NCBI GenBank assembly: GCA_044892525.1
Contig: CM097885.1
Coordinates: 12,836,001-12,900,000 of the forward strand
Source: Schmidtea polychroa
Lineage: Eukaryota
Direction: 5' to 3'
Length of the DNA stretch: 64,000 nucleotides
Of the stretch, positions 20,604 through 55,688 are shown piece by piece (positions within the stretch are counted from its first letter, which is position 1; the number at the start of each line of letters is the position of its first letter). The position numbers were made by a program, and so were the translations under genes. The notes below the pieces were generated by a model. That model worked only from the letters and a program-made list of their open reading frames with translations. It was not told where the DNA came from and did not search any database.

Positions 20604-21560
20604 CACCCGTTTGCAATGAATAGACACATCTATAATGTTAACAAAATCAATAAGTTTATATTATATAAACACACACTTACATGCGCGTTGATATTTAGCG
20701 CTGCAGTGAATAAACGTATTTAATACAGAAAGTGAGAAAGTGGCAGAAAAAATAAAATGAAACACGCAAACACAACAGATAATAAAAAATGCATGCGAAA
20801 TCTCTAAATGTAGAATCGTTGTAATTGCTAAACTCGCTTTAATTAATCATTTACAGACATTATTAGAAAAAAATGACCGAAATAAATTTTGACGAAAATT
20901 CCGAAAACTCAACATTAAGTTGTAGAAATAATGATTACATAATTTCATAAGATTTATCTTCAATTTTTAATAAATTTAATAATTTTTTAGAATTTCACAT
21001 TGTCCTGAAATTTCTTTATTAACATTTCCGTCCAATGTTGATGTTGGAAAAAAAATAGAAAAATCGTAAATTTTATGAACCTAAATTTAAAAAATTATTA
21101 TTTCCCTCGAAAGGAGATTTTATTTAATCAATGAGACGCTGGAAGGTGATGTGAAAAAATATGATTATAGAAATTTCGAAAACTATTTTGAACACATTCA
21201 CTGTTTTTCCCTATAAAAGTTTTAAAAATATAGATTTCTTTGGAGAATAATAAATTATATTTGTAAATTAATTTAATTAAAAATAATAGCACTCTTGTTG
21301 TATCAAAATAAATCTAAAAAAAGTTGATTATAAATTATTTATAGTAGAAAATGTTGAGAAAAACTAATATTTAAAATCTTGAATAATAATATAATATCCA
21401 TATGGATAAAATTAAAAGCCTTAAAGTTTACTTTAAATTAAAGAAAAAGCCATTTCCTAAAAACTTACAAACAATATTTAATCACAAATAATGTGTGTTC
21501 TATAATTGGTTGTACACACCAATCTATATCATCGTTGCGTATATTTATTGCAAACGAGTG
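20604..21560. mobile_element. Tc1/mariner-like non-autonomous element, same family as 54853-55688
   Basis: TA-CACCCGTTTGCAATGAATA ... TATTTATTGCAAACGAGTG-TA. The interior aligns by eye with 54853-55688; partial copies at ~2190-2256, 23630-23740 and 24060-24210. Confidence 0.65.
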
Positions 21561-22522: not shown

Positions 22523-22954
22523 ATGAGAGAAATAATAGTTCTTTTCCTGATCAATTCAGTCTCTATGTTTCGTAAAAATTTTGTTCAATTGAAAGTACTT
22601 CATTTTGAAACAAAAGAAATGACGGATTTAAGATCTACAGCCGAATACTTTAAAGTCAGTAAAGAGCTGACGATTGTCAATCAAACCGAAATGAAATTGC
22701 CTCATTTAGTTCCATTGAATTTGACACTAGATTACAGACCTATGTTCAAATATCTATTCTATCCCACCGCATTAAAAAGTGAGATTTGCAAGGAATTCCT
22801 CATAAATCAAGTAAATACGTTCATGCTCGTTAATGATGACGGAGAATTAGAAAAAGATAAATTTAATAGAGGAGTAGATTTTATCATTCATATGGTTTCA
22901 TCAATGGGCATTCCGACATTTACTTGGTTTCCTGATAAAGCCGGACAATACAAG
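22523..22954 (+). CDS. NMDA-type ionotropic glutamate receptor subunit (GluN2/Nmdar2-like), coding exon 1: signal peptide and start of amino-terminal domain
   Basis: Hydrophobic N-terminus MREIIVLFLINSVS; ICKEFL...FIIHMVSSMGIPTFTW resembles the invertebrate Nmdar2 ATD. Donor AAG|GTAAAT, phase 0. Confidence 0.7.
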
Positions 22955-24460
22955 GTAAATTTATTCACATGAGCTTTTCTTATTAGATATCATAACTGAT
23001 CCTATTGAAATTTTGCAGAGTTTCATTTCATTTAGATTATTCCCCATTGATAATATATAATATTGAAGCCATACCATTGAATAAAATATTATTATATAAT
23101 TTATTTATTTAAAATTTTATTGTAATATATATTAACATTTCTCAGCATTATTTTGTCCCAAAAATTCATGAAAATATTTTATACAGAAATATTGTAGATT
23201 TTATAGTCATATTTCCTTTGAAATTTCAATGTAACATAAGCTTGCTTTGACCACAATAACTATTCATCTGGCATTATCCTATACTTACACGATTCCCACA
23301 TTGGCTTTAATCCCACGAAATTATACTATGACATAATCTTTGAGACTTTAACAAAATACTGATAATACATGACAGCAAGGCTTTTGTTACAGTAATTAAA
23401 TTCAGTGATTTTTGTGAATTTCTGCATGAAAATTTGACATTTGTTTGATATAATTTTTTCTATCATGATAGATTGATAAGTTATTCTTTTGATTCAAACT
23501 TTACACATTTATTTTACTAGTTTCATTAATTTGCTTTGTTGATTTTTTTGTAGATTTTTGTTTAAATAGGAATAGATTAAATTGTTTAAACAGCAAAGTT
23601 ACAAAAACTTACACATGTGTTGAAGTATTTACTATAGTAATGAAGAAAGTGGTAGAAAAAATAAATTTAACACACAAACACAATACATAGTAAAATATGC
23701 ATATAAACTTTCGATATGTAATATTGTTTTATGGAATTCATGTGATTTAAATTTCTTTTTGTGATGAAACTATGAGAGATAAAAATTTTAAATTTTGTAC
23801 CGAAAAATATTTTGAATTCAATCTTACTACTCTAGAAATTGATAATATAAACTAAAAAAGTTAATATAAAACCGAAAAGCATTTTTTTATGAATATTCTT
23901 GATTTTGTTTCAAAATGTACTAAAATGAAAATATTTTACTTTTTAATTAAAAATTTTTAAAACCTTCAAATTGTAAAAATTCCATAGAAAACAAAATATT
24001 GTCAATTCATAATCTGAAAATAAATTGTCAGAAATAATGATTCATTTATTTGTTTACCCACAAAGAGGCGTTTATTCCATGCAAACTGGTGTAGAAGAGT
24101 TTATTTTAAGCAAAAATAGTCAAAGTAATAGAAAAATAAATTCAACACACAAACACAAAACAAAGTAGAGAATACATGCAAATTTTCGATATATGCAACT
24201 GTTGCATGGAATAAGTATAGGCGTCTAATAATATTTTGATAACTTTTGTGAAACAATAATGGTTTTATATATCATTGCTTGAAATCCTTTATCCTTTTCA
24301 TTCAAGCCAATCTTCTTATTCTTTATTTCAGATTGTAGGTCAACATTTTTATTAATTTAATATTAACTCTAAATTGTGTAAAATAAATAAAATATTGAGA
24401 TATTATCTGACATAAGAATAAAGGAAACTAAAATTATTAAGATATCTTAACAAAGAAAAG

Positions 24461-24603
24461 AGTAGTGTGTATATAGCCCTAACCCAAACAACCCTCCCAA
24501 CAAAAACATACCTCCATTACGCTTAAACCATTAGAAAAACAACCTAAAACTTATACTTTTATAGTATTTTAACCCTATATTTTTGAAAACAACCACCCTT
24601 AAT
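24461..24603 (+). repeat. Left outer terminal inverted repeat of Polinton
   Basis: Exact reverse complement of 38448-38590 (143/143, compared block by block). Confidence 0.97.
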
Positions 24604-24615
24604 ATACAACTACTT

Positions 24616-24768
24616 TATAAATCTAAGATACCCACACCATTTTCAATATGGTTTTCAAATTTTTAATATTATTTTATGTTGAAAAAAAACTAACCTCAGA
24701 TGTGATTTGAACCACTGTGCCAGTCTAGCCCACTGCGCTATCTTGCTTTGGATTTTTGTCATTTTTTA
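24616..24768 (+). repeat. Left inner inverted-repeat segment of Polinton
   Basis: Near-identical reverse complement of 37686-37825, with a few substitutions and one ~13 bp indel. Confidence 0.9.
24682..24747 (-). ncRNA. tRNA-like Pol III unit in left inner TIR segment, outward facing
   Basis: Minus strand: A box TAGCGCAGTGG (24740-24730), B box GGTTCAAATC (24713-24704), T8 run (24689-24682). Anticodon arm is missing. Confidence 0.55.
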
Positions 24769-24879
24769 AATTTTTATTATAAAAATCTAAAAATTATACT
24801 GTCACATTATGAAAATAAATATAAAAACATCATAAAAAATAAAAAAACAAAGTATCCAAAAAAAAATTTTTTTCTAAAA

Positions 24880-27800
24880 ATGAATTGTAATATTTGTAAT
24901 AAAGTTTTTAAAAATAAAACTGGATTGATTTCTCACTGTAAATCGAAAGCTCATTTATTAAAAGCAAACAATCTTAATGATACAAATTCAAAAGTTTGTC
25001 CTAAATGTAAAGGAAGATTTCTACATTCTGGATATAATAAACATTTTGAAAATTGTATCGGGAAAAATAGAGAAATATTTACATGTTCTCACTGTAACTT
25101 TTCAACAAAAGTAAATTTCTATTATTTAGAACATATAAAAGAATGTAAAAATAAAAAACAAAATTCTGACGATGAGGAATGTCATTCAGAAGGAGAACCT
25201 GATCATGTTGAAAGAGAAAAATATAACTGGGATGATTTTAATCATGTAGATGAATTTCAATTAGAAATCAATGGACCTATAACTCCTGGAGAATATATAA
25301 ATAAAAATAAAAAAAATATTAAAAATTCTTTCACTGAAGCTTTAAAAAATTATAAACCGACAAGGTATAATGTTATAAAATATAAAATTATAATCAAAGC
25401 AAAATACTGGCGAGGAGCACAAGAAAAGACAACACCTTTAGATGTTGAAATTGGAATACCCTTTAAATATTTATTTTCAACTAAAGGATTTGATAAAACC
25501 ATCAAAGAAATAATTCAAGCAGTAGAAGCAAAACAAGAAGAGGTTGAAAATGAATTAGGAGATTCAAACTTAGTATTCAACTCTTTCCAAACTTTAGTGA
25601 TTGATTATTGGAGAGGATTACCACCTAATCCTAAATCTTATATTCCTACACCCTTTAAATCTAAAAATGTTATAAACATACAGAATAATGATAACAAATG
25701 TTTCGTCTGGTCAATACTTGCACATTTACACCCTCAAGAATCAAACCCTCAAAGAGTTTCAAAATACAAACAATATGAAAATGAATTAATATTTCCCAAA
25801 GGATTCAAACATCCAATGAAACTAGAAGACATTCCAAAATTTGAAAGTTAAAATAATCTTAAAATTAATATTTATGAACGTGTTAAAGGGAAACATGTTA
25901 ATAGCAGAGAAATTATTCCAATTTATATTTCAGATTATGAAGTTAGAGATAATGAACCCCAGGATAACACTAGGGAGATATATCTTTTAATCTTGGAACA
26001 ACAAAATAATCAACATTATGTTTTAATAAAAAACTTTCAAGCTTTTACATCACCAGAGAATCCAACTAGTGGAGGAGGAACATGTAAAAGATGTCTTCAT
26101 TATTCAACAACTAAAAACACTATGATTAAACATACAAGATTTTGTGAAAAAGATGATCCAGCTTTAATTAAAATGCCTAATAATCCCAAGATGTATTTTA
26201 AAAACTTTTCAAATTTACTACAAACAGTAGGAGTGCTTTATGGGGACTTTGAATCTATAAATCGTAAACAAGATTTGGTTAAACAATATTTAAAAATAAT
26301 AGAAAAAAATAAACTCATGGATTCCTGGAACTCCTCAGGAGAGAAGATGAAACCAGAGAGGATGAAAGCCTTTCTAAGAAAAAGGAATAAACCTAATAGT
26401 GTTAAAAAAACTAAACAATTACCATCTGCTTATAAATTATTATTTAAAAGTAATTATCCTGAACTCATAGAATCTAGAGAATATACATTTCGAGGAATTT
26501 CAGAAACAGAAGTCTTGAATCATTTTACTAAAAGTATAAATGATCTAGAACATGAAATATTTAAAGTATTAAAAACAAACTATCCTCAAAATATTTCTAA
26601 TCAACAACAACAAGAATATGAAAACACTTCCAACTGTTGGATGTGTAAACAACCATTTGAAGAGTCTCCGAATATAAAAGTCCTCGATCATGATCATTTA
26701 AAAAAGGAAAATAATTATCGAGGAGCAGCTCATAAAAATTGTAATCTTAATTGTCATACTCCTAAATTTGTACCTGTTATATTTCATAATCTTTTTGGTT
26801 ATGACATACATCTATTTATTAAACATTTAGCAGCAAATGCTAAAAACTCTTTCAAAGTTATAGGACTTACAAAGGAAAAATATAAATCAGTTGAATATGG
26901 AAAATTAAAATTTATAGACTCGTTAAACTTTCTTCAAATGTCTCTAGATGGAATAGCTAAAACAATGAAACCAGAAGATTTTAAAATCACTCGAGAATTC
27001 TTGGAAAAAAATAATATTCCTCTAGAAGAATATCCTACATGTTTAGCAAAAGGAATATATCCTTATGACTATGTTGACTCGTTTGAAAGATATAATGAAA
27101 CAAGTCTTCCTAGCCAAGAAGATTTCTATTCACAACTTCAAAAATATCATATTACAAATCAAGAATATTCTCGAGCAAATAAAATGTGGGAATTATTCAA
27201 GTGTAAAACTTTAGGAGAATATACAAGTATGTATTTATCCTTGGATGTTTATATTCTAGCAGATTGCTTTGAAGAATTTACAAAGTCTTTTGTTCTTAAA
27301 CCTTACAATTATATAACAGCACCCTCTTTAGCTTGGGATACTTTATTATATACCATTTGGACTTTAAATATAGAAGAAGCTGATAAAATTATAGATCTTT
27401 TAACTAACCTCGATATGTTTAATCTAATTAAAACAAACATTAGAGGAGGAGTCTCTTCAGTAATGGGGAATAGAGAAATAAAAGCCTGAAATGCAATAAC
27501 TACTAGCAGAATGCTTTCAAAGACCTCTGATCCATATATAAAAATTAATAATGAGGAATTAAAAGAAATATTAGAAACAATGAAAAATCCTATATTTATA
27601 CTTTATATAGATGCAACAGCTTTATATTCAGGAATTATGACTCAATATTTACCAATGGGTGATTTCATTGAAATAGAATCATCAAAAGAACTTATAAAAG
27701 AAATACTTTCAACACCTAAAGATTCTCCAATAGGTTACTTTGTAGAATGTGACTTATTATATCCAGATGATATAAAATCAGGAACAAGATATTTCCCATT

Positions 27801-29196
27801 AGCTCCTGTAAGAAGAAAGATTGATATCAACGAACTTTCTGAATGGCAAATCTCACAAGATAAACCTCCAACAATGAAACTTCTTTGTGATCAAACAGAT
27901 CGAAGGTTTTATCTTTGTCACTATAGACTCCTCCAATTTTATCTTTCACGAGGTATGATATTAAAAAAAGTTCATAGTGTCATAAGATTTAAACAAGCTC
28001 CATTCATGAAAGCTTTTATCGAGGAGAATATTAGGTGCCGAAACATTGCAAAAAGAGAAGGTAACCTTTTTAAAGATAATAATTATAAACTTTTAAACAA
28101 TTCAGTCTTTGGGAAAACAATGGAGAATGTTGATAAATATACTCATATTGAACTTTTAACTAATACTACCAAAGATATTAAGCGCTATAATCGTATGCTA
28201 GGAAAGCCTACATTTAAAAACGCACAAGTATTTTCTGAAAATCTTACTGCAATAGAACTAAAGAATTTTCAGAAAACATACAACAAACCAATATTTATAG
28301 GGTTTTCAATTGTAGAACTTTCAAAATTACAAATGTATGAAACATATTATAACATCTTACAACCTATATATGGTTCTAATATATCAATGCATGCAATGGA
28401 TACAGATTCAATGTTTTTAACAATAAGAACTCATAATTTACAAAGAGATATAGCCGAAAATCCTATACTTTCAAATTTAATAAATTCATCTGGAGAATTA
28501 TTTTCGTTTAAAGATGAAAAACCTTTTACTCCTATAGAAAATGGAATATTTATTCGTGCTAAACAATATTCATACGAAACATTTAGAAACCCTGAATTTA
28601 TAACTAGATCATTTATATTTAAAACTCCAAAAACAGAAGAAACCATTACACATAGATATCCTATATTTCCTAAAGGACCAGAGGGACAAGAAGAAAAACC
28701 TGTAAAGGATAACAGATGTAAAGGAATACAGAAATTAGTTGCAAAGAATCTTTCTCATCAAGATTATATAGATACATTGAATCCAAATCATAAAGATAAA
28801 CTTGATGAAGTGCATCAGATTAAAAGCGAAAACCATGATATTCACTTGATAGAATCTCAAAAAGTATCATTATCAAATTATGATGATAAGAGATTCATCC
28901 TAAGTGATTTAAAGACAACTCTTCCTATAGGAAATAATTTAATACCGATAATAAAAAATCTAGAAAAGTTGAATAATTTATATGATACAAAAATTACTGA
29001 TCTTGATATTTATAATGTTGAAATCATTTATCCCGAGAGAGAAATCGAGAAGCCTTTATATTCTCAAGTTTTTAATCCTATATGTTTAGAACTTAAATAT
29101 TTTAATACTGATCCTGAATATATAAAAGGTCTAAGTGATAAAGAATTTAAAGATCATAAATTAATGATTCAAAGGTTGGCTTTCAACGATATTTAA
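24880..29196 (+). pseudogene. polB: Protein-primed family B DNA polymerase with N-terminal Zn fingers and an endonuclease VII-like insert; two in-frame nonsense codons
   Basis: The three listed ORFs share one frame, split by TAA 25849-25851 and TGA 27487-27489. Motifs: ExoI YGDFES, EndoVII CWMC..DHDH..RGAAHKNCN, ExoII FHNLFGYD, ExoIII YLSLDV, Pol YIDATALY, KLLNNSVFGK and MDTDS. Confidence 0.93.
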
Positions 29197-29258
29197 TGTC
29201 GACAATTAATTTAAGCAACTATAGCAACCTGATCTACTTTTTTAAAAATACACCCATT

Positions 29259-29858
29259 TTATAAATAAGAATTCTTTAACCATTTCTCTCGTTTAATTTT
29301 TTTAGAATATTCATTAGTTACAACATTAGCGCTTTTTAATCTATTAATATTATTTTTAATATCTTGTATTATTTGATTTGATTTCATTATTTCATCATCA
29401 GTTAAGATTCCATCTTCCAAAGCTTTTAATTGAAATAAAAATAATTTAGAGATTCCTAATTCTATTGATAAACAAACTTCACGATATAAACTTTTCTTTT
29501 TAGAAGTATAAGATAGTGAAACTATTTCAGTTAGGAAACCATCAGCTACAGAAATACTTCCAAGTATTACTGGTGCAAGAGTAACAACTGGTAAAGTTAT
29601 AGGTAAAATAACTGTTAATATTGCAGATGCAAATCCTAAAGAATAACCTATAACTTTTAAAACTGTATTCCCTTTATTCCATCTATTTTTAATTTATTTA
29701 TAATGCTTTAATAAATCTTGTATATGTAAGGTTTCTGATTTAAATTCTTTTACTCTCATAATTTCAAGTTCTGTGGGAGCCGAAGGTGCCGAAGGTTTGG
29801 GGGAATAATATCCTGATGACAATTCTGGGTAAATTTTTTCTTCTCTTACTTCTTCCAT
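29259..29858 (-). pseudogene. Polinton PX-like transmembrane protein with one internal stop (not in ORF track)
   Basis: Hand translation: MEEVREEKIYPELSSGYYSPKPSAPSAPTELE...HYK*IKNRW..two hydrophobic segments..KALEDGILTDDE...SYL*. Premature TAA at 29696-29694. Confidence 0.75.
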
Positions 29859-29866
29859 TTTAATAA

Positions 29867-30844
29867 TTAAAAAAATAAGATTTTATTATCTGGTACCAAT
29901 ACTCGGATATCATAAGAGACTCTTGTTGAGAGAATATCTTTATACAATTCCATCAATGCTTTACGAACTTCATCAACATCAACCTTTTTTTCATAAAATA
30001 TTAAATCTATATATTGTACAAGTGTGCTTTTAAAAATAATATTCTTACTTTTAACTTTATGTGTTTTATGTGAATCAGTTTTATCATGCCAATATCCATG
30101 TGTTAAATCATAACCACTTATTATAACATCACCCTTTTCAAACTTACTATTATAATCACATTTCACAAACCATTTCATTCTTTCATTATCATCATCAAAT
30201 AAAAAGAAATAAGGATCAATAATCTTTACAACCATAAAAACACTCCATTCTTTACTATTTGTTGTTATTAAAGTTGGTTCTATAAAATGTTTATATATAT
30301 GGGGTAATAATGTTTTATTCTGTTCAAATTCAGCAGCTCTTTTTCTAATACTATGTGTGGTGTTAATGTGTGTTGTATGAGATTCTAAATTTGAAAGTCT
30401 TTTATTAAATGATGTAATCATCTCATTTATTATATTATATATTGTATTAAATTTAGTATTCATAATTTGTTTATCTTTAGAATTTAATATACTAGTATTT
30501 AACTTTACAACTTGTTCAGTTAACAGACTTTGTAACTTGTCAAATTTATCATTAAATCGTTGTTCGATATTATTAAGCTTTGATTCCATTGAATCAATTT
30601 TTGTTGTTAATGAACTTTCAATTCTTGTTGTTGTTAAATCAGTATATTTCTTATTAACCGCATCAGCTTCATCAATTGGTAAAGATAAATCTTTTATCTT
30701 GTGTCCATTTAAATTTAAATCACCCTTCATTGAATCACCTCTTTCATTAATATATTTATTTTCTGTTAAAGTTAATATTTCTTCTGTATTAAACCCTGTT
30801 TTTATTGTTCCACCACCTCTATTACATGGAATATAAGAACTCAT
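29867..30844 (-). CDS. Putative virion fibre-like protein
   Basis: YINERGDSMKGDLNLNGHKIKDLSLPIDEADAVNKKYTD resembles phage tail-fibre/trimeric stalk repeats. It is followed by a coiled coil and a globular C-terminus, and lies next to the penton gene. Confidence 0.6.
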   Translation of the reverse strand: MSSYIPCNRGGGTIKTGFNTEEILTLTENKYINERGDSMKGDLNLNGHKIKDLSLPIDEADAVNKKYTDLTTTRIESSLTTKIDSMESKLNNIEQRFNDKFDKLQSLLTEQVVKLNTSILNSKDKQIMNTKFNTIYNIINEMITSFNKRLSNLESHTTHINTTHSIRKRAAEFEQNKTLLPHIYKHFIEPTLITTNSKEWSVFMVVKIIDPYFFLFDDDNERMKWFVKCDYNSKFEKGDVIISGYDLTHGYWHDKTDSHKTHKVKSKNIIFKSTLVQYIDLIFYEKKVDVDEVRKALMELYKDILSTRVSYDIRVLVPDNKILFF

Positions 30845-30870
30845 TTATTAATAATTTAAAATGGACTTCG

Positions 30871-31608
30871 TTAAACCTGTTTCAAATGTAAATACATTGA
30901 AATCTCTTCTCCATTAAAATCAATCAATTCTCCTTCTTGATTAAGAATTTTAAAATTAATATCCATTATATATTTTCTACATAAAGGTAAATAATTTGGA
31001 GGATTCATTCTTTCAACTATTTTATATCCCATAGGAACTGTGTTTGAGGGAAAGGAATATAAAATATTACTTTGTTTACCATTATTATAAGAACCTGTTA
31101 TACAATCGCAATGAATATTTATTGTGTTTGTATTTATTATTTTTATAATATTTTCTGATGTAACTTCAGGTGTGGTATAATGGTTTTGTGTAAATCCTAA
31201 AATTGTTCTAAAGAAACTATTATTTTGAAACCTAAGTCCTATATTCTTTAAAGTCATTATACATTTTGAAGTTGGTAAATCTATTTTAATTTCAATAGCT
31301 CCATTTGTTTTTTTAGAAAGTATATTATTTAAATCTTTTATCTCATAAGCCCCGGGTTCTATTATTATTATGTTATACTCCGTTTTTAGGGGGCTTACAT
31401 AACTAAATGTGTTAATATCTTTAGTTATATTAAAAATAGTATTATAAGCACAAAACCATAATAGACCTAATTCATAATTTAAATTTTGATCTAATTTTAT
31501 TGAATCTTCAAAATTTATAGTAAAGTCTGATTCTTTTGAATTTATAGATAAAGTTCTTGAATATTTATCTGACATTATGTTTACCATTTTTTTTAAATTA
31601 TCTTCCAT
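30871..31608 (-). CDS. Minor capsid protein (penton, single jelly roll)
   Basis: SDFTINF..IKL..NYELGL, IEPGAYEI, INIHCDCITGSYNNG..SNILYSF and LNQEGELIDFNGE are Polinton penton motifs. Confidence 0.85.
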   Translation of the reverse strand: MEDNLKKMVNIMSDKYSRTLSINSKESDFTINFEDSIKLDQNLNYELGLLWFCAYNTIFNITKDINTFSYVSPLKTEYNIIIIEPGAYEIKDLNNILSKKTNGAIEIKIDLPTSKCIMTLKNIGLRFQNNSFFRTILGFTQNHYTTPEVTSENIIKIINTNTINIHCDCITGSYNNGKQSNILYSFPSNTVPMGYKIVERMNPPNYLPLCRKYIMDINFKILNQEGELIDFNGEEISMYLHLKQV

Positions 31609-31611
31609 TTC

Positions 31612-32097
31612 TTATAGTAGAGATTTTAAATCATTATAAATTTCTTGGATTAAGGAAGTGAAACAGTAGTCCCCTTTGGACAGAGTCCCTTGAGATTTAT
31701 TCAATCTATACAAAACATATAAGCTTAAAATACCACATATTTTAGTATTATTAGGTTGAACTTGTAAAGAATTAAAAGTATAGTCTCTCTTCGAGCTTAC
31801 TCCGGACAGATAGTCTTCAACTTCTTTAGTGGGTTTAATCCTAAAAGAATCAAAGTAGATTGGGACTTCGTCCATATATATACAAACCCAATGAGATCCT
31901 TTTTCATTTGAATTTTGATAATTGATTATTATATTCTTTGGAGTGACCCTTTGACCTTTGACCTTCGGACCTTTCAATTCATTATTCATTAATATTTTTA
32001 TTTTTAAATTTAAATAATCTGCATAATCTTTTAAATCAAAATTTGTTTTTGCATTTATTCCAAATGTTTTTAAAAAATCTAATATTGAAGGAGTCAT
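31612..32097 (-). CDS. Adenain-type cysteine (maturation) protease
   Basis: IINYQ...GSHWV (His), YFDSF (Asp), Q...CG (Gln, Cys). The usual FDSFG reads FDSFR. Confidence 0.9.
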   Translation of the reverse strand: MTPSILDFLKTFGINAKTNFDLKDYADYLNLKIKILMNNELKGPKVKGQRVTPKNIIINYQNSNEKGSHWVCIYMDEVPIYFDSFRIKPTKEVEDYLSGVSSKRDYTFNSLQVQPNNTKICGILSLYVLYRLNKSQGTLSKGDYCFTSLIQEIYNDLKSLL

Positions 32098-32792
32098 TTT
32101 ATATACTTATTAAATTTATCTTTTGAAATTATTCCTTGTTTTAACAAATCTTTAGAAATCTTTAAAATATCAGAATCTAAATTATTATGTCCTGCTTTTT
32201 TAGCTGCTAATAGTTTTCTTAATTCAATAAAAAGATTGATTGGGTTTGCAGCCACAGGCATCCCCTTACCCTCTGTAACAACATAACCCCTTTCATTTTT
32301 ATTTAAATAATTCTTTAAATCTTGAATATGTTTTGCTTTAGAACTACCATGTATTTTTTTTATTAAGTTTAAATATATATAAAATATTTGATTATTAATT
32401 GTTATTGTTTGAAAACCTCTAGGATCATAACCTATAGTAGGTATAATTGATGGAGCTAGTGATGTATTAATTTTAAAATTAATTGAAGTCTTAAGAGGTG
32501 TTAATCTTGAAAGAAATTCATCTTCTTCTAAATCAATAGTATTTCTACGTTTTCTTAATCCCATTAATCTTGATAATTCCTTTTTAGAAGGTTCTATAGC
32601 TTTAAGTTCAGGGGTTAGAGGAGCTTCTATAGTTTTAAGTCCCTCTATAGCTTTAATTGTTGGCCCCTGTTGTTGTATTATTACCTCATTTAATATTATA
32701 GATTCGGCATGTTGAGTTGTATCTTTTTTATTATATTTATCTTGTTCAGATTGTAATTTTTTTAAAAGTGCTAATCTTTCTTCATATACCAT
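32094..32792 (-). CDS. Polinton PZ-like core protein
   Basis: C-terminal GKG-x-NPINLFIELRKLLAAKKAGHNN..DILKISKDLLKQGII matches the conserved Polinton PZ C-terminal motif as I recall it. Confidence 0.65.
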   Translation of the reverse strand: MVYEERLALLKKLQSEQDKYNKKDTTQHAESIILNEVIIQQQGPTIKAIEGLKTIEAPLTPELKAIEPSKKELSRLMGLRKRRNTIDLEEDEFLSRLTPLKTSINFKINTSLAPSIIPTIGYDPRGFQTITINNQIFYIYLNLIKKIHGSSKAKHIQDLKNYLNKNERGYVVTEGKGMPVAANPINLFIELRKLLAAKKAGHNNLDSDILKISKDLLKQGIISKDKFNKYIK

Positions 32793-32814
32793 TTTTATGG
32801 TATTAAAAATGGTA

Positions 32815-33411
32815 TCAATGGGGTTCGAAGGGCTTCAAGTATAAACCTTTACCATTTTTAGTTTTACAAAGGCATCCATTCTTTAAAGATTTACATATTT
32901 TTTTTAAATCATCTTTATCTTTTGAAGATAAAGATTCAGATGTAGAAATTTGATTTTTTAAAAAATCATTTAAACCTCTACCTTTATAAGGATCAAGATA
33001 GAGACCTTTGCCCTGAGACTTTTGCCGACTCCCCTCATATGGATTAAGATAGAGACCCTTTCCAACGGACACTCCCCCTTTAGCTTGCCCTACCTTCTTC
33101 ATTGAATCGATTTCAGTTTGTAGTTTTTCTTTTTCTAGGTCTGTCTTTTGAGATTCTTTAGCTTTTTGAACTGTAGTTGCAATTCCTCCAGCTATTCCAG
33201 CAGCACCTGATAAACCAGCAATGATTGCAGGTATTAAAGCAGCTAATGGAAGAATGCCTCCTTCTTTAGCTTCGTGGAGCTTCGCTCTAACTTGTTCTTT
33301 TACATGTTTTCCAATAAAATATTTTTTACCATCAATTACTACTGATTTATTTTTATTTGAATTTATTAATTCTTGCAAAGATTCTTCAGTAGAGGAACTC
33401 TTCGAGGTCAT
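32815..33411 (-). CDS. Adenovirus pX-like / membrane-active core protein (PW-like)
   Basis: EGG-ILPLAALIPAIIAGLSGAAGIAGG resembles the adenoviral pX C-terminal peptide after a GG cleavage site. Three GKGLYLxP(Y/F) repeats. Confidence 0.7.
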   Translation of the reverse strand: MTSKSSSTEESLQELINSNKNKSVVIDGKKYFIGKHVKEQVRAKLHEAKEGGILPLAALIPAIIAGLSGAAGIAGGIATTVQKAKESQKTDLEKEKLQTEIDSMKKVGQAKGGVSVGKGLYLNPYEGSRQKSQGKGLYLDPYKGRGLNDFLKNQISTSESLSSKDKDDLKKICKSLKNGCLCKTKNGKGLYLKPFEPH

Positions 33412-33426
33412 TTTATAATATATAAA

Positions 33427-34239
33427 ATGGATGTACGAAGTCCAATAATTTGGAAACCAATTTTAAATAGACATAAATCTAAATTTAATAATAAAGTATT
33501 TCCTGATAATTTTAGATTATTAATTGTTGGTTCTTCTGGATGTGGAAAGAATGTACTTGTTTTGAAAATGTTACTTGAAGATGGTTTTTTAGATTATAAT
33601 AATTTAATCTTTTATTCTACAACCATAAATCAACCAGAATTACAACTTTTGAAATGTGGATTTGAAAATAAATTAACTAAAAAAGCTATAATTGATATTT
33701 TTAAAAATCAACATAGATGTCCTGAAGAAGTTTTTCAACCTTGTGATATGGTTGATTGGTATAAGGAAAAGATTTTAGAATCAGATATTAGTAATAAAAA
33801 TGATTACATCTGTGAAGATGAGGGGCAGGCAGAGGCGATTCAAGTTTTATTCTCTAATAAACCTGAAGATGTTTTACATTGTGATTTACTTCCTAAAGAT
33901 AAAAATAATCTAGTTATATTTGATGATGTTGTTAACATGAAAAATCAAGAGATTCAAAAGAGTTACTTTACAAGAGGAAGACATAATAATTGTAATGTTA
34001 TTTATATATCTCAAACTTATTATGCTTTAGATAAAAACTCTATAAGAAATAATTCTAATTGTTTTATATTTTTTAAATTAGATCGCCGTGATAAGAATAT
34101 GATTAATAATGATTTATTTTCAAATGTTGAACCTGAAAAGAATATGTTTGATATGTTTGTTGATAATCATTGGAAAGAAAAATATAATTATATTTATTTG
34201 GATAGAGAAGAAGCTGAAATATGGAAAAGTTTGTTTTAG
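33427..34239 (+). CDS. A32/FtsK-like genome packaging ATPase
   Basis: Walker A GSSGCGKN (usual T/S replaced by N), Walker B LVIFDD, RGRHNN and YISQ. True ATG at 33427. Confidence 0.92.
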   Translation: MDVRSPIIWKPILNRHKSKFNNKVFPDNFRLLIVGSSGCGKNVLVLKMLLEDGFLDYNNLIFYSTTINQPELQLLKCGFENKLTKKAIIDIFKNQHRCPEEVFQPCDMVDWYKEKILESDISNKNDYICEDEGQAEAIQVLFSNKPEDVLHCDLLPKDKNNLVIFDDVVNMKNQEIQKSYFTRGRHNNCNVIYISQTYYALDKNSIRNNSNCFIFFKLDRRDKNMINNDLFSNVEPEKNMFDMFVDNHWKEKYNYIYLDREEAEIWKSLF

Positions 34240-35606
34240 AAATCTGTTTTCTGTAACTCATTATTATAAAATCTACCTAATATTTTTTCATTATTTAAAT
34301 CAATGATGCTATATGTTATTGGAGTTGTATAATGTATTTTATTTATAATAAAAATTTCATTTGTCCATTTTGCTGTGAATCCTTTTTCAAATTTATTTTT
34401 ATATTTAAATATTCTTACTCGGTCACCAATTTTAAACTTTGGTTTTATAGGGGTTGTATCAACAATAACATCATTTTCAATATTTACCACTTTAATGGTT
34501 TCAGGATTCATGGAAGCATTTAAAGGTGTTGATTTTATAGAACTATGTACATCATTATTATATTCATTTACAATCTTTTGTAACCACTCATTGTTCCATT
34601 TTTGTTTTCCAATAGCAGTAAAATATTTCCACATTTTATTTTTTAATGTTCTATTTAATCTTTCAAATACGACTGCTTTTCCTTCGTTTTCTGTTGAATA
34701 TAATTTAATATCATTTTCATTTAAAAACTTTGTAAAAACTTTGTTATAAAATTCTGTTCCTTTATCACACCATAAATATTTTGGAATTCTTTGATGTTCT
34801 TCAAATATATTTTCAAATGCTTCTGTAATGGAATATCCTGTTTTATTTTCTAAACACCTTGCAAAGGCAATCCTTGTATATAAATCTATTACAGTTAAAA
34901 TTATTTTATATTTTTCAGGGTCTGATGATTTGGTTGGCATAAAGACTAAATCTGCAGACCATGTTTGATCTTTTTCATGTACTTGAACTTTTAAATATTT
35001 TTTATTTTTTCTAAATTCATGGTGTAATTCGTTGGCATATTTTATTTGTGATTCTGTTGGGGTTAATAAACTAGTCTTGGATATATTCTCGAGGGATCTT
35101 TCAGCATATGCTTGTTCAATAATCTTTTTATTAGCAACATCTTTTGCCATCCTTGGTAAACTAGCACCTATGAAAATCTTACCTTTCATTGCTAATTTAA
35201 CTAGAGCTCTTTGAATCTTTTCTTGGGTTGATGGATTTTGGATACTATTTAAATCATGTATTAAATTAACATCTGCAACATGTCTATCTCTAAGATCTTC
35301 TGAATTGTAAGCAATATCAATTTTTAAAGCTGCTTGGTCGATTCTATTTATTGGTTCTTCTCCTTGTTTGGGATTATTATTTTCATCTAATCTAATATCT
35401 AATCTTGTTCCTGGTCCGGTATAGTTGTGTTTAAATAAATGTCTTTCACCTGGATATTTTTCTGTAGTAAAAGGTTTTAATATTGAAGATGTCACTTTTG
35501 AAGATTGTAGATCGCCTCCTATATGTTTTTTAGTTTTTAGATGACTTGCTTTATGATGTCTTGTAACTTGACAATTACAACTTTCACATCTCCAATAGAG
35601 AGACAT
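34236..35606 (-). CDS. Retroviral-like (rve) integrase with N-terminal Zn finger and PLA2-like domain
   Basis: DDE motifs WSADL, WCDKGTEF and FERLNRTLK; C-terminal FKIGDRVRI. N-terminal CxxC..H..H finger and HNYTGPGT...PINRIDQAALKIDIAY...RHVAD. Confidence 0.92.
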   Translation of the reverse strand: MSLYWRCESCNCQVTRHHKASHLKTKKHIGGDLQSSKVTSSILKPFTTEKYPGERHLFKHNYTGPGTRLDIRLDENNNPKQGEEPINRIDQAALKIDIAYNSEDLRDRHVADVNLIHDLNSIQNPSTQEKIQRALVKLAMKGKIFIGASLPRMAKDVANKKIIEQAYAERSLENISKTSLLTPTESQIKYANELHHEFRKNKKYLKVQVHEKDQTWSADLVFMPTKSSDPEKYKIILTVIDLYTRIAFARCLENKTGYSITEAFENIFEEHQRIPKYLWCDKGTEFYNKVFTKFLNENDIKLYSTENEGKAVVFERLNRTLKNKMWKYFTAIGKQKWNNEWLQKIVNEYNNDVHSSIKSTPLNASMNPETIKVVNIENDVIVDTTPIKPKFKIGDRVRIFKYKNKFEKGFTAKWTNEIFIINKIHYTTPITYSIIDLNNEKILGRFYNNELQKTDF

Positions 35607-35623
35607 TTTAAAATGTTAAAATA

Positions 35624-36916
35624 TTAAGAATCTCCCCTAACATTTTCGATTATTGAAATCTTTCCACCATATAATTTCATTTCTATTTTCTTTTCTTCTA
35701 ATATTAATGTATATACTTTAGCTTTAAAATTAGAATCCTTTGTTACATGAAGTGTAACATCAACATTATTTATGGCTAGGCGATCATCTTGGTCTGAAAC
35801 ATTTATACAAAATATAGAATATAAATTTTTGAAATCTTCTAAACTTAATTGCGGTTCAACTTTGAAATCATAACATGTTTCAATATAATTTAGATATGGG
35901 AATATGTTTTCATTATTTTCAATATTAAATTCCATTCTATTTATTGGATAATAAGAACTATTTAATTGAATTTGGATTGTTTTTAAATTATCAACTCCAA
36001 TCTTTTGAATAAACAAGTTGTTATTTTTTTGGAAAGATGAATCTACTTCTTTGAATCCAATCAAGATATATCTTGGTCGGTATGCTAAATTTGCTACCTT
36101 TATAGAATATGTTGAACCCTCTGTCATACTAAATTCACTACAGATTCTATTTAAATAATTTACATTTATAGACTTGTTGGAATTTAATCTTTCAAGGAGT
36201 TTAATCTCAGAATGTGGATTTAATGTCCATTCAGGTATATGCAATTCAAGTGTTGATATTTTTAATTTAGCTGTTGTATCTGCAGCTCCATAGAACAATC
36301 TTTTATCACCTTCTACTCTATTACAAACTAATTCTATAAAAACATTATGAAGTATACGGTTATAGTTTTGAATGAATCCAAATAAGTGTTTTAATTCAAA
36401 ATAACCTTCAAATTTTTTAGATTTATAAAGTTCAGCTCTTTTATAGTAACCATAATTTATATCTAAACCATGTTTATCTAAATCTCCTTTATTAACATCA
36501 GGAATCCAGCCTGTTAATTCACCATATTCATTTTTATAATCACAACCAGTCAAAATAAAATTTAACATTGTAGAATATACTCCCGGATGCAAAACAGTTT
36601 CAATTTCTGACGATCCTAGTTTTAATCTCATGTTGGAGAATAAATTTGGAAAGAAATTATTTTCTAGGGTTATATCTTTGTTTGCTTCAATTTCTAATTT
36701 GATTTTATAATATAATTTGGCATTACAAATATCTATAGGGTTTGATGTTTGAAGAGATTGAAAAACTATATCACCCCTACGATTTAAGTTTGCAATAGAT
36801 CCTGAAGTTGGGGAGATTTTAAGTACATCGTTTTTCTTGATTTCATGAGTAAATTCTTTATTATAATCAAGATTTAATTTATTTTTTTCTTGAATTTTAA
36901 GATTTATTTTATTCAT
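35624..36916 (-). CDS. Major capsid protein (double jelly roll)
   Basis: 430 aa, beta-rich, with NLFSNMRLKLGSSEIETV..PG..STM, RPRYILIGF, IQLNSSYYP and FKNLYSIFCINVS. Size and position fit Polinton MCP. Confidence 0.85.
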   Translation of the reverse strand: MNKINLKIQEKNKLNLDYNKEFTHEIKKNDVLKISPTSGSIANLNRRGDIVFQSLQTSNPIDICNAKLYYKIKLEIEANKDITLENNFFPNLFSNMRLKLGSSEIETVLHPGVYSTMLNFILTGCDYKNEYGELTGWIPDVNKGDLDKHGLDINYGYYKRAELYKSKKFEGYFELKHLFGFIQNYNRILHNVFIELVCNRVEGDKRLFYGAADTTAKLKISTLELHIPEWTLNPHSEIKLLERLNSNKSINVNYLNRICSEFSMTEGSTYSIKVANLAYRPRYILIGFKEVDSSFQKNNNLFIQKIGVDNLKTIQIQLNSSYYPINRMEFNIENNENIFPYLNYIETCYDFKVEPQLSLEDFKNLYSIFCINVSDQDDRLAINNVDVTLHVTKDSNFKAKVYTLILEEKKIEMKLYGGKISIIENVRGDS

Positions 36917-36972
36917 TTTTATATATTAAAATTTACACACACACAATAGGATTAATTAAATATATTATGTAA

Positions 36973-37054
36973 GCCATTATAGCGGAGTGGGAATAGGCTT
37001 CAATTTTATCACCGGGAGTACCGGGTTCAATTTTCGATTTTGGTCAATTTTTTT
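36973..37054 (+). ncRNA. tRNA-like Pol III unit 1, degenerate cloverleaf
   Basis: A box TAGCGGAGTGG 36980-36990, decayed B box GGTTCAATT 37024-37032, tRNA-length spacing, partial acceptor stem GCCA/TGGT and T7 run 37048-37054. Confidence 0.55.
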
Positions 37055-37215
37055 CGATATTTTTTTTCAACGGAATCTGATTCAGCGTACTGATTTTAGT
37101 ATATATTTAAATTTTCAGATGGATCTGAGTGGTAGTTGTCGAGAAAATGAATAATTAATTATTAATTTCATCAATAAATAGTCACACATTAACAACCTAT
37201 TTTATATTGAGTATA

Positions 37216-37296
37216 GCTCTAATAGCTTAGTGGTAATAGCACTCGACTGCATTGCCAATACCAATGGGTTCAAATCCCATTTCGGTCATTTTTTTT
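37216..37296 (+). ncRNA. tRNA-like Pol III unit 2, tRNA-Cys-like 5' half, anticodon stem unpaired
   Basis: A box TAGCTTAGTGG 37223-37233, D stem GCT/AGC, loop CTGCATT, perfect T arm ATGGG-TTCAAAT-CCCAT 37264-37280, 73 nt body and T8 run 37289-37296. Confidence 0.7.
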
Positions 37297-37459
37297 CAAA
37301 ATTTTTTTTTAACGAAATATTGATCAGCATACTCGATTTAGTACTTGTACAAATTTTTAAGGAGATTGGTCAACGGCAACTCTTGGAAATTTAAGATCAA
37401 AAACGTTTTAACTTAAGCTACCAAAAATTAATATATCCAATAAAAAAATATTTATAAAA

Positions 37460-37729
37460 ATGGATGAGTTAAAAGAAAGAATGAGAAATGAATTGAATGA
37501 AGTTAAACATAAGAGAATGAAAAGAAGAGAAGAAGAACCATTAGAATACATCAAAGAGTTGATGGTAGATAATGAAAAGTATCGACATTTTTATATGAAG
37601 GCTGTAGATGTTGCTGATATAAGATTGAAGAAAATGAAACAATTACAGGAAAGAGTTAAAGAAATTGAATCGATTATTTATAGTCTAAAAAATGACAAAA
37701 ATCCAAACCTAGATAGCGCAGTGGGCTAG
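37460..37729 (+). CDS. Small charged coiled-coil hypothetical protein of Polinton
   Basis: 89 aa ORF with the same TATAAAAATG start context as other element genes. It ends inside the inner TIR segment. Confidence 0.5.
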   Translation: MDELKERMRNELNEVKHKRMKRREEEPLEYIKELMVDNEKYRHFYMKAVDVADIRLKKMKQLQERVKEIESIIYSLKNDKNPNLDSAVG

Positions 37730-37825
37730 ACCGGCACAGTGGTTCAAATAGTTTTTTTTCAACATAAAATAATATTAAAAATTTGAAAATAATATTGAAA
37801 ATGGTGTGGGTATCTTAGATTTATA
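37686..37825 (-). repeat. Right inner inverted-repeat segment of Polinton
   Basis: Reverse complement of 24616-24768. Confidence 0.9.
37707..37759 (+). ncRNA. tRNA-like Pol III unit 3 in right inner TIR segment
   Basis: A box TAGCGCAGTGG 37714-37724, GGTTCAAAT 37741-37749 and T8 run 37752-37759. Confidence 0.5.
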
Positions 37826-37916
37826 TTTTATTTTATTTTATTTATTTTTATTTATTTTATTTATTTTATTTTATTTTATTTTTTAAACATAAATATGAAA
37901 AAAAAATATTGAAACG

Positions 37917-38277
37917 GGTGTGGTGGCGAACCGGTAATTATCGCCACCAGTCTTTCGAACACCCCCGGATCGATTCCATAATGTGCACATTTATTTCTCA
38001 GTTGTTTTCGGACCTCTTTCGGATTCACTTTCGAATTCATTTGTACTTTCGAGCAGCACACTTAAAACGCCGATGAAATCGTATTCGAGCGAGAAGCGAA
38101 TAATAAGGTGTGCTGCTATTATCGGATTGATTCTGATGTATGAGTCTGGCCAGCTTGTATATTAGAAGAGATTTGATAAACGAAAGAGGTTGAAATGATC
38201 CGGATCAAAAAAACTGTTGAGGGGACAGTGAAAAAAAAAAAATACCACTGTCCCCTCAGAGCAGTTTTACTATTTTT
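37917..38277 (+). ncRNA. Candidate ~360 nt structured Pol III RNA (VA-RNA/TMER-like)
   Basis: A-box-like TGGCGAACCGG 37924-37934 and B box GGATCGATTCC 37967-37977. GC-rich island with multiple nested 7-13 bp perfect helices, ending at T4/T5 runs 38265-38277. Confidence 0.55.
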
Positions 38278-38447
38278 CATTTATTTTTTAATTTATATAA
38301 TTTAAAATCAATAATCTGATAAAGATCAACTCCGGAGTTTGATTGCGATCAAAAGTAGTGTGTATATAGCCCTATCCCAAATAGCCCTCTAACTTTTTCA
38401 TAATGCCATTTTCTTTTTTATTCTCTTTTTAGTTTGAGGCTTTAAAG

Positions 38448-38590
38448 ATTAAGGGTGGTTGTTTTCAAAAATATAGGGTTAAAATACTATAAAAGTATAA
38501 GTTTTAGGTTGTTTTTCTAATGGTTTAAGCGTAATGGAGGTATGTTTTTGTTGGGAGGGTTGTTTGGGTTAGGGCTATATACACACTACT
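38448..38590 (-). repeat. Right outer terminal inverted repeat of Polinton
   Basis: Exact reverse complement of 24461-24603. Confidence 0.97.
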
Positions 38591-38994
38591 GAAAAGTATT
38601 AGAAATATAAAACGACACATAAACCTTCCATAGGAAATCATATTTATATTTTATATAAAAATAGGAAATTTGTTGATTCAATGCTTTTTATAAAATATTT
38701 GAATATAAACTTATATAAACATATATTTACATCTAATCCATTACTAAATTGTTAACGTTTTCTGTGATATTTAAATAAAATAAAAAATTGAAGTAAATTT
38801 AAATAAAATAATGCTATTATAAAATTATGGAAAAATCAAAAAATCAAAATTAAATTAATTAAACTAACTTTTTCCCTTTGATTGAAAGACTTTAAAAATT
38901 TTTAATGTATTTTTTATCAGTCATGTCAAACAAATTTTTGTTTATCTTATTAATTTACTTAAAGATAAAAACTTTTTAAAATGTATATTATTAT

Positions 38995-54852: not shown

Positions 54853-55688
54853 CACCCATTTGCACTGAATAAACGCGTCTATAATGTAAAAATAAAATCA
54901 ATACGTGTATATTATATAAACATACAAACTTACCTGTGTGTTAATTTTTAGCATTGCAATGAATAAACGCATTTAATATAGAAAGTGAGAAAGTGGTAGA
55001 AAAAATAAACTGACACACAAAAACACAACACATAGTATAAAAATGCATGCAAATTTTCGATATGTAGAATCGCTGTAATGACAAAATGCACTATAATAAA
55101 TCATTTACAGACATTTTTAGAAATTTTTAGAAAAAAATGACCGATACAATTTTGACGAAAATTCCGAAAACTCAACTTTGAGTTGTATAGATAATAAAGA
55201 CGTTATTTCGTAAGATTTATCTTCAATTTTTAATAAATTTATTATTAGTTATTTTAATAAAACATGACAATTCGACTAATTAATCCCTTTAAAAATGTTT
55301 ATTTATATTTAAAAATATATTTGACTTACATTATATCGAAATAATTCCAAATAACCTCATAAAATTTCATAAAAATCCTAAAAGAAATCCTAAAAAATTA
55401 ATTAAAAATAATTTATAATAAAAAATATCGATAAAAAGTATTATTTAAGAGCTTGAATAATGATCTCATATCTATATGGATCAAAATTCAAACCTTAAAG
55501 TTTACTTTAACTAAAATAAAATTACTTGAAAGCCATTTCTAAAATGGCTAAATAAGTAGTTACACCAACCGGCAATTGATTACTGAATTTATTACTGCAC
55601 AAAAAATTCAATCACAAATAATGACGCATCTATAATATGGGTTGTACATATCAACCCATATTATGCTTTTATTCAGTGCAAACCGGTG
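54853..55688. mobile_element. Tc1/mariner-like non-autonomous element
   Basis: TA-CACCCATTTGCACTGAATAAA ... TTTATTCAGTGCAAACCGGTG-TA: ~22 bp TIR with TA flanks. Confidence 0.7.

Follow-up and report, generated by a model that had tools for sequence, protein, structure and literature searches.

Several viral systems are known in which small RNAs are produced from tRNA-like genes with internal RNA polymerase III (Pol III) promoters. In the sections of PMC4337559 and PMC8223928 drawn on here, the TMERs of MHV68 form a cluster near the genome end, and each has a tRNA-like head with an internal Pol III promoter followed by stem-loops; a triplicated, overlapping A-box is a further TMER feature (PMC8223928), and alternative terminators give rise to short and long forms of TMER1 and TMER5 (PMC4337559). 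VA RNA I and II possess an internal box A and box B, an oligo-U end and strong double-stranded structure, and a tRNA origin has been proposed for them (PMC7589676, in part). Polintons, by comparison, have so far been described almost only by their proteins. Adenoviruses and Polintons belong to the same broad double-jelly-roll lineage, and VA RNA blocks PKR and competes for Exportin-5 and Dicer; TMERs give rise to mature miRNAs. In tRNA-derived SINEs, a tRNA-derived head with A and B boxes is joined to an unrelated body. According to the portions of PMC12220804 consulted and a figure legend of PMC8502044, tRNA genes are also found in polinton-like viruses and virophages, and the figure in the latter, an adintovirus paper, draws them for viruses with other replicases.

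The locus described here lies in a 64-kb window (the whole stretch of DNA that was analysed), which contains an adintovirus-like Polinton/Maverick copy (Table 1). The terminal arms of this copy show 100% complementarity, and identical 6-mers at 24455-24460 and 38591-38596 represent the target duplication; terminal inverted repeats with a 6-bp target duplication are characteristic of Polinton/Maverick elements. The membership of the copy is also indicated by Pfam matches to a protein-primed DNA polymerase B (PF03175, E 1.9e-8), the gene for which is split over three ORFs, and to a retroviral-type rve integrase, an A32 ATPase and a double-jelly-roll capsid. The protease and minor capsid candidate ORFs (31612-32097 and 30871-31608) have no Pfam match. 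At its N-terminus, the integrase ORF (34236-35606, minus strand) encodes an in-frame PLA2-like domain. Each right end (38354-38590 in the window; L094, L104 and L110) repeats its terminal 30-36 bp in inverted orientation approximately 200-270 bp further in, and this design is common to three different terminal sequences. Upstream of the element, a host ORF (22523-22972) seems to stop at a splice donor, and the Polinton may be intronic. The host genome that was searched amounts to 781 Mb, with four large contigs, and all 98 of the scored capsid matches (the best 98 of 3251 candidates) were 97-100% identical. The Polinton family is large and young. Because the copies are young, conservation among them says little.

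An earlier note on this DNA had claimed four co-oriented A-box/B-box units between the capsid gene and the right end, a fifth unit at the left end, and oligo-T behind each of them. Our scan of the 64-kb window returned five A-box/B-box matches, all within the Polinton. The A-boxes are at 36980, 37223, 37714 and 37924 on the plus strand and at 24740 on the minus strand, and the B-boxes lie 44, 44, 27, 43 and 27 nt further, respectively. Shuffles of the whole window contained 0.09 such pairs on average and never more than 1; for the region 36901-38350, which holds four units, the shuffle mean was 0.004, and 0 of 1000 shuffles reached 4. The scan and the shuffles bear out the four units. The fifth unit, which mirrors unit 3 in a decayed inner arm of the inverted repeat, is present but not independent; it points outward and stands head-to-head with the first polymerase ORF (ATG 24880). 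At the other end of the element, the start of unit 1 is 57 bp from the capsid ATG, which is on the opposite strand. A run of seven or eight T closes units 1-3 and the left-end unit, whereas unit 4 has no strong T-run, and the claim of oligo-T behind each unit holds only for the former. We consider the cassette to be a real set of element-borne, tRNA-derived genes of Pol III type, and the Polinton probably makes small RNAs of its own, namely, three worn tRNA look-alikes and one longer folded candidate.

Table 1. Positions of the Polinton copy, its Pol III-type units and the associated features in the window.
Feature	Positions	Strand	Description	Basis
Polinton/Maverick (adintovirus-like) copy	24461-38590		14,130 bp	143-nt arms, 6-bp target duplication, Pfam genes
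Left-end unit	24682-24747	-	short-form mirror of unit 3	box scan; inverted arms I2, I3
Major capsid gene	35624-36916	-	double-jelly-roll	PF21738, E 1.9e-26
Unit 1	36973-37054	+	tRNA-length A/B-box unit, ends T7, paralogue of unit 2	box scan
Tail common to units 1 and 2	37037-37115	+	second copy at 37279-37357, 76% identical	duplicate D2
Unit 2	37216-37296	+	derived from host tRNA-Cys(GCA), ends T8	Rfam tRNA 32.4 bits; host gene L189:1485-1556
89-codon ORF	37460-37729	+	in cassette, stops within unit 3	ORF list, Pfam
Unit 3	37707-37759	+	short form, ends T8	box scan; ~30 nt shorter than sisters
Unit 4 head	37917-37989	+	A-box 37924, B-box 37967	box scan
Unit 4 body	37990-38277	+	predicted multi-hairpin domain, ~290 nt	folding
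Stem with variable loop	38052-38117	+	predicted, 12 bp; one pair A-U, G.U or G-C among copies	folding, pair counts
Pre-miRNA-like hairpin	38119-38179	+	predicted, 25 bp incl. 8 G.U pairs	RNA/DNA folding
Terminal hairpin	38210-38268	+	predicted, 21 bp, A-rich loop, just ahead of T-runs; one pair G-C, G.U or A-U	folding, pair counts
Terminal module	38354-38590		inner copy of terminal 36 bp, inverted relative to true end	inverted-repeat arm I4

An old duplication had been suggested for units 1 and 2, and its features were recovered: the starts are 243 bp apart, both units are of tRNA length, and they share the 79-nt tails listed in Table 1. An ungapped comparison by eye shows the two bodies to be colinear, with 38 of 63 positions matching. 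In unit 1, the D and anticodon stems are broken and the T-arm is partly kept; its fold is not significant (z +0.44), and units 1 and 3 fold no better than shuffles. As had been expected, tRNA tools gave the scores of pseudo-tRNAs. Only unit 2 exceeds the Rfam tRNA cut-off (32.4 bits vs 29), this best score compares with 62-74 bits for host tRNAs, and ARAGORN called no tRNA in the units. In 13 of 14 sister loci, the Rfam tRNA score of unit 2 is between 23 and 36 bits. The cloverleaf of a functional tRNA is absent and the anticodon stems are unpaired; on sequence grounds, no unit is a working tRNA.

The origin of unit 2 can be traced further. A pattern drawn from this unit matched 1000 sites in the host genome and its reversed control matched 0, and the host locus that was read from it is a tandem array of tRNA-Cys(GCA). 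Over the stretch from A-box to anticodon, 25 of 28 positions of unit 2 match host tRNA-Cys, with one inserted base; just past the anticodon, the match is 2 of 15, and at the B-box it is 11 of 11. At 3 of 5 pairs, both strands of the T-stem depart from host tRNA-Cys, with pairing kept. These matches indicate that unit 2 derives from host tRNA-Cys, the choice of Cys being partly circular because the pattern came from unit 2; the comparison covered a few host tRNA types. The predicted refold of unit 2 consists of two hairpins (z -2.2, 6/200 shuffles). Host tRNA genes were observed in long tandem arrays (L189, L183 and L201): the repeat period is 281 bp for approximately 1000 tRNA-Cys sites and 424 bp for Lys genes, and Asp and Gly genes alternate.

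Unit 3 occurs in sister copies at tRNA length, with the B-box 43-44 nt from the A-box; it is shortened in the window copy and others, and the short form is also found in L030. Among six variants of this unit, all 11 nt of the A-box are constant and the B-box differs at a single position, while the spacer and the 3′ part vary freely, which agrees with the observation in the earlier note that the boxes are better kept than the stems. Searches with Pfam and by sequence revealed no relatives of the 89-codon ORF that runs into this unit.

The units could be abundant host SINEs, and the earlier note had named this possibility along with the question of whether the units are confined to Polinton copies. 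For unit 2, the genome search yielded 744 candidates, which is fewer than the 3251 for the capsid, and the 40 scored (the best 40 of 744) were all identical. Each of the 30 loci that were fetched has a Polinton context; 27 show the capsid-start motif 330-450 bp away and the remaining three carry further cassette units, while the other 10 scored matches are in the window or beside capsid or cassette matches. For unit 4, there were 2221 candidates. Of the 40 scored, 16 constitute eight outward-facing pairs 12-29 kb apart, four are at loci already covered by the analysis, and the remaining 20 of 20 stand beside a terminal motif. No free copy was found in the 50 sampled loci (30 for unit 2 and 20 for unit 4), which are the closest matches, so that diverged free copies could be missed; nor did these loci show target duplications of the units' own, a 3′ A-tail or dispersed insertions, the traits of tRNA-derived SINEs. 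Among these closest matches, the units are confined to Polinton copies and are fixed parts of the Polinton family instead of free host SINEs.

The presence of the units in sister Polintons is partial. Eighteen sister loci share the whole cassette at 89-97% identity (the best 40 of 2997 candidates were scored), but three capsid-bearing copies (L061, L091 and L092) have no unit between the capsid gene and the end, and no match above chance was found in the approximately 10 kb of body that each of them offers, a stretch that stops short of the far end. A retroelement-like insertion interrupts the body of one of the three. Because some capsid-bearing copies lack a cassette beside the capsid gene, the cassette may be dispensable. 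The order of the units beside the capsid gene also differs: 1-2-ORF-3-4 in the window, 3-4 in L035, L080, L104 and L110, and 3-4-1-2 in L067, L069, L084 and L094, with unit 3 doubled in L030. Moreover, units 3 and 4 occur with three different terminal-repeat types. It appears from these arrangements that the units move among subfamilies as intact modules. Outside this family, box-pattern matches were found in 7 of 38 metagenome loci with capsid relatives at 20-52% identity; the three that were read (L118, L119 and L135) are situated in coding-like sequence or inside reading frames, and they seem to be fortuitous. Rfam detected no tRNA in 19 of these 38 loci, for which the contigs are mostly short and without ends, and two scans of viral contigs found no relative.

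Unit 4 differs from the others because a long folded domain is predicted behind its head. On the plus strand, the segment 37915-38280 has a predicted energy of -134.4 kcal/mol (z -8.8, 0/100 shuffles), and on the minus strand -110.5 (z -5.9). The three hairpins of the domain recur in the predicted folds of L080 and L104. As plus-strand RNA, hairpin 38119-38179 is stable (-25.1, z -5.0), whereas as minus-strand RNA (-3.0, z +1.1) or plus-strand DNA (-4.1, z -0.4) it is not; the other two hairpins are equally stable as DNA on either strand. Pair counts were obtained as exact-motif loci among 188, in which copies share descent and two loci are counted twice. One pair of the 38052 stem is G-C at 19 loci and A-U at 46, with 35 matches for G.U and 1 for A.C; one pair of the terminal hairpin is G-C at 48, A-U at 34, G.U at 3 and A.C at 0. 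Together, the mixed forms are G.U 38 times and A.C once, the G.U counts representing related copies and not independent events. The head is predicted to form a hairpin and no cloverleaf. By eye, it resembles host tRNA-Gly(GCC) in several blocks of 3-8 nt, which is suggestive only.

The terminators of unit 4 are also unusual. The host Gly gene ends in T5, and a split T3-A-T3 is found behind the unit 4 head, followed by T4 at 38005-38008 and by the first T5 at 38273-38277. In 11 of the 12 copies read, T5 is absent over approximately 350 nt of unit 4 while A-runs vary freely; in L035, T5 is directly behind the head. The T4 at 38005-38008 is present in all of the copies read, and host tRNA-Cys genes have only T3 and T4 runs downstream; because of these two facts, the long form of unit 4 may not be made. 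The pair counts and the predicted folds point to signs of selection on the plus-strand RNA structure of unit 4. Rfam returned no miRNA or VA family match in the units, and a literature search with five hairpin motifs gave an unrelated match only. Two miRNA-like hairpins were observed elsewhere. One Polinton-like metagenome contig, the capsid of which is 50% identical, contains a mir-754-like hairpin in a non-coding stretch (L116:5436-5515, minus strand; 48.6 bits, E 9e-7, where the family cut-off is 84), and some planarian miRNA families may be Polinton-related; an uninformative mir-754 search of the host genome gave no match. A mir-753-like hairpin (55442-55502, 59.7 bits), of a family that we take to be planarian, is outside the Polinton, in sequence that recurs at 21318-21447. 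Together with an exact match to a probe published in a Schmidtea paper, this hairpin points to a planarian host.

Coverage of 34200-38700 was examined in four contig sets, of which three are from runs guessed to be RNA and one is from a DNA-like run. In the guessed-RNA runs, contigs extend over the body of unit 4, and the summed contig depth peaks in the two bins of 37975-38276: 6609 and 11395 in X1 (median bin 38), 8944 and 2583 in X2 (median 224), and 42 and 41 in X7, with 8, 23 and 0 in the next bin, respectively. We regard this as a lead and not as evidence, because contig depth cannot rank parts, the assignment to RNA is guesswork, and X1 and X2 share one study and were picked up with this very stretch. 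The DNA-like run likewise peaks at 37975-38276, its excess over any other bin of the element being below threefold. In X1, A-rich loose ends behind 38195-38196 are uninformative because sister copies have A-runs at the same place, and one contig reaches 24 nt upstream of 37921, beyond the predicted start. Low depth over units 1 and 2 is likewise uninformative. At 38125 and 38138, most of the guessed-RNA contigs show the 25-bp hairpin in an L080-like version that few contigs of the DNA-like run have; contig depth being unreliable, this too is no more than a lead.

The explanation we prefer, tentatively and with slightly less than even confidence, is that this Polinton family captured host tRNA genes, turned them into Pol III genes of its own, and exposes the RNA of unit 4 to the host small-RNA machinery. 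In such a scheme, host TFIIIC and Pol III would use the internal promoter of unit 4 and pass the weakened tRNA terminator, which would yield a folded RNA of approximately 360 nt and perhaps also a 90-nt short form, while units 1-3 would give RNAs of 50-80 nt. That the units are read by Pol III into the folded RNA and the short RNAs is likely. By analogy with TMERs and VA RNA, Dicer and Argonaute would handle the long double-stranded hairpins, and unit 4 would supply either a miRNA-like product, with 38119-38179 as the source, or an abundant competing substrate; given expression, we lean slightly towards such processing of the hairpins. According to PMC8532177, in the part cited, planarian Polintons are targeted by piRNAs and are de-repressed on smedwi-2 knockdown. 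A reading that involves the small-RNA machinery fits this setting because SMEDWI-2 and piRNAs silence planarian Polintons, and Pol III transcription would allow integrated copies to produce RNA during PIWI silencing of the Pol II genes. An extension to animal Polintons in general, which would repeatedly recruit host tRNA genes as Pol III promoters and thereby make structured RNAs that either supply or block Dicer, Argonaute or PIWI, is in our view doubtful.

The main rival to the small-RNA reading is a role of the units as DNA, in which TFIIIC/Pol III sites at both ends would serve as barriers in chromatin or hold open the neighbouring Pol II promoters, those of the capsid and polymerase genes, and the short RNAs would be by-products. 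TFIIIC sites are described as chromatin boundaries (PMC3395662), and the layout agrees with this role: a unit stands head-to-head with the capsid ATG in each cassette arrangement that was read (unit 1 in the window; unit 3 in L035, L069, L080, L084 and L094), the left-end unit points away from the polymerase ORF, both ends carry unit 4 in 8 outward-facing pairs (among the best 40 matches), and the boxes are kept while the stems drift in units 1 and 3. However, the RNA-only hairpin, the G.U bias and the missing T5 of unit 4 would be left unexplained, as would the compensated T-stem of unit 2. We give this role a limited chance as the sole explanation, and it may hold for units 1-3 alongside unit 4 acting as RNA.

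A second rival considers the short units as tRNA mimics, with unit 2 presenting the 5′ half and T-arm of tRNA-Cys as a sponge to factors that bind tRNAs or 5′ halves (PIWI loading, stress nucleases). It would account for a likeness to host tRNA-Cys that holds at 25/28 positions from A-box to anticodon and drops to 2/15 just after, and in planarians each of the three SMEDWI proteins is associated with 5′ tRNA fragments (PMC7962491, in the section cited). Nevertheless, unit 1 has lost most of its tRNA-Cys likeness, subfamilies without units 1 and 2 exist, and the pseudo-Gly and SUP-TTA species probed in that section do not match the units, a mismatch that also rules out the units being those planarian RNAs; we consider mimicry unlikely. 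The units could also be neutral passengers, that is, tRNA pseudogenes or old SINEs that were captured once and multiplied with a young and successful element, which would suit the 40 of 40 identical unit 2 matches, the cassette-free copies and the shortened unit 3 in the window copy and others. Compensated stems, strand-specific folding and boxes and T-runs that were kept despite 60% identity between units 1 and 2 argue against this, as do whole-module reshuffling and the lack of a free copy in the 50 sampled loci, and they make passenger status quite improbable. It is least probable of all that the hairpin block is a single-stranded DNA structure for replication or packaging near the genome end with incidental boxes upstream, for although the block adjoins the terminal module, often at both ends, and two of its hairpins are stable as DNA on either strand, hairpin 38119-38179 is unstable as DNA (z -0.4) and the block is missing from copies with intact ends (L061, L091 and L092) and from the left end in the window.

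If this doubtful extension to animal Polintons were correct, the present family would reveal the passage from tRNA to viral RNA while it is under way, and thousands of integrated copies would make one of the more abundant small RNAs of the host. The cassette would then amount to a transposon's RNA-based defence against silencing and to a model for the origin of adenovirus VA RNAs. A Pol III RNA cassette as such would supply Polintons with a product while PIWI silences the Pol II genes. Unit 2, with its traceable descent from tRNA-Cys, is relevant to the old proposal that VA RNA and other viral Pol III RNAs came from host tRNA genes, and some of the "pseudo-tRNA" calls in such genomes may be viral. 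In mostly open-access literature, supplements excluded, we found no prior report of a Pol III RNA cassette in Polintons. Among the literature matches listed for Polinton/Maverick and VA RNA, none contained both, and among those for B box, TFIIIC or Pol III, none mentioned Polintons; the main text of a planarian tRNA survey, in the portion covered, does not mention them either (PMC7962491). The supplementary tables of planarian miRNA and tRNA studies may already list pieces of the units.

Compared with the known systems, the units differ from tRNA-derived SINEs because they are spread by the Polinton, with no free copies, target duplications of their own or 3′ A-tails in the sampled loci. With the tRNA genes of polinton-like viruses and virophages, they share the status of tRNA-derived cargo in related viruses; those genes, however, can be called by ARAGORN or Rfam and are read as codon helpers in the portions of the papers cited (PMC12220804; PMC8502044, figure legend), whereas the units have broken anticodon stems and no ARAGORN call. 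The earlier note had proposed a layout resembling VA RNAs or TMERs, and only the second half of this proposal was retained. Box A, box B and the oligo-U end of VA RNAs are found here, as is strong predicted double-stranded structure, but a length of approximately 160 nt, paired 5′ and 3′ ends with a terminal stem, and central and apical domains are not: unit 4 comprises approximately 360 nt in separate domains, and none of units 1-3 reaches 85 nt. For the conserved tetranucleotide stem of the VA RNA central domain, the one matching 4-bp pairing in the predicted folds is at the 5′ end of unit 4 and may be chance. The likeness to TMERs extends to a cluster near the genome end and, in unit 4 only, to a tRNA-like head with an internal promoter and downstream stem-loops, the tRNA-Gly likeness of this head having been judged by eye; the short and long forms from alternative terminators (PMC4337559, PMC8223928, in part) are proposed for unit 4 as well. 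The differences are that the unit 4 head is predicted to refold as a hairpin in place of the tRNA fold that RNase Z can cut in TMERs, that the body of unit 4 is longer, and that units 1-3 lack downstream hairpins; no sequence relation is expected. Judged by its boxes and predicted fold, the layout of unit 4 resembles that of a TMER and not that of a VA RNA, and by analogy unit 4 would act like a TMER without descending from one.
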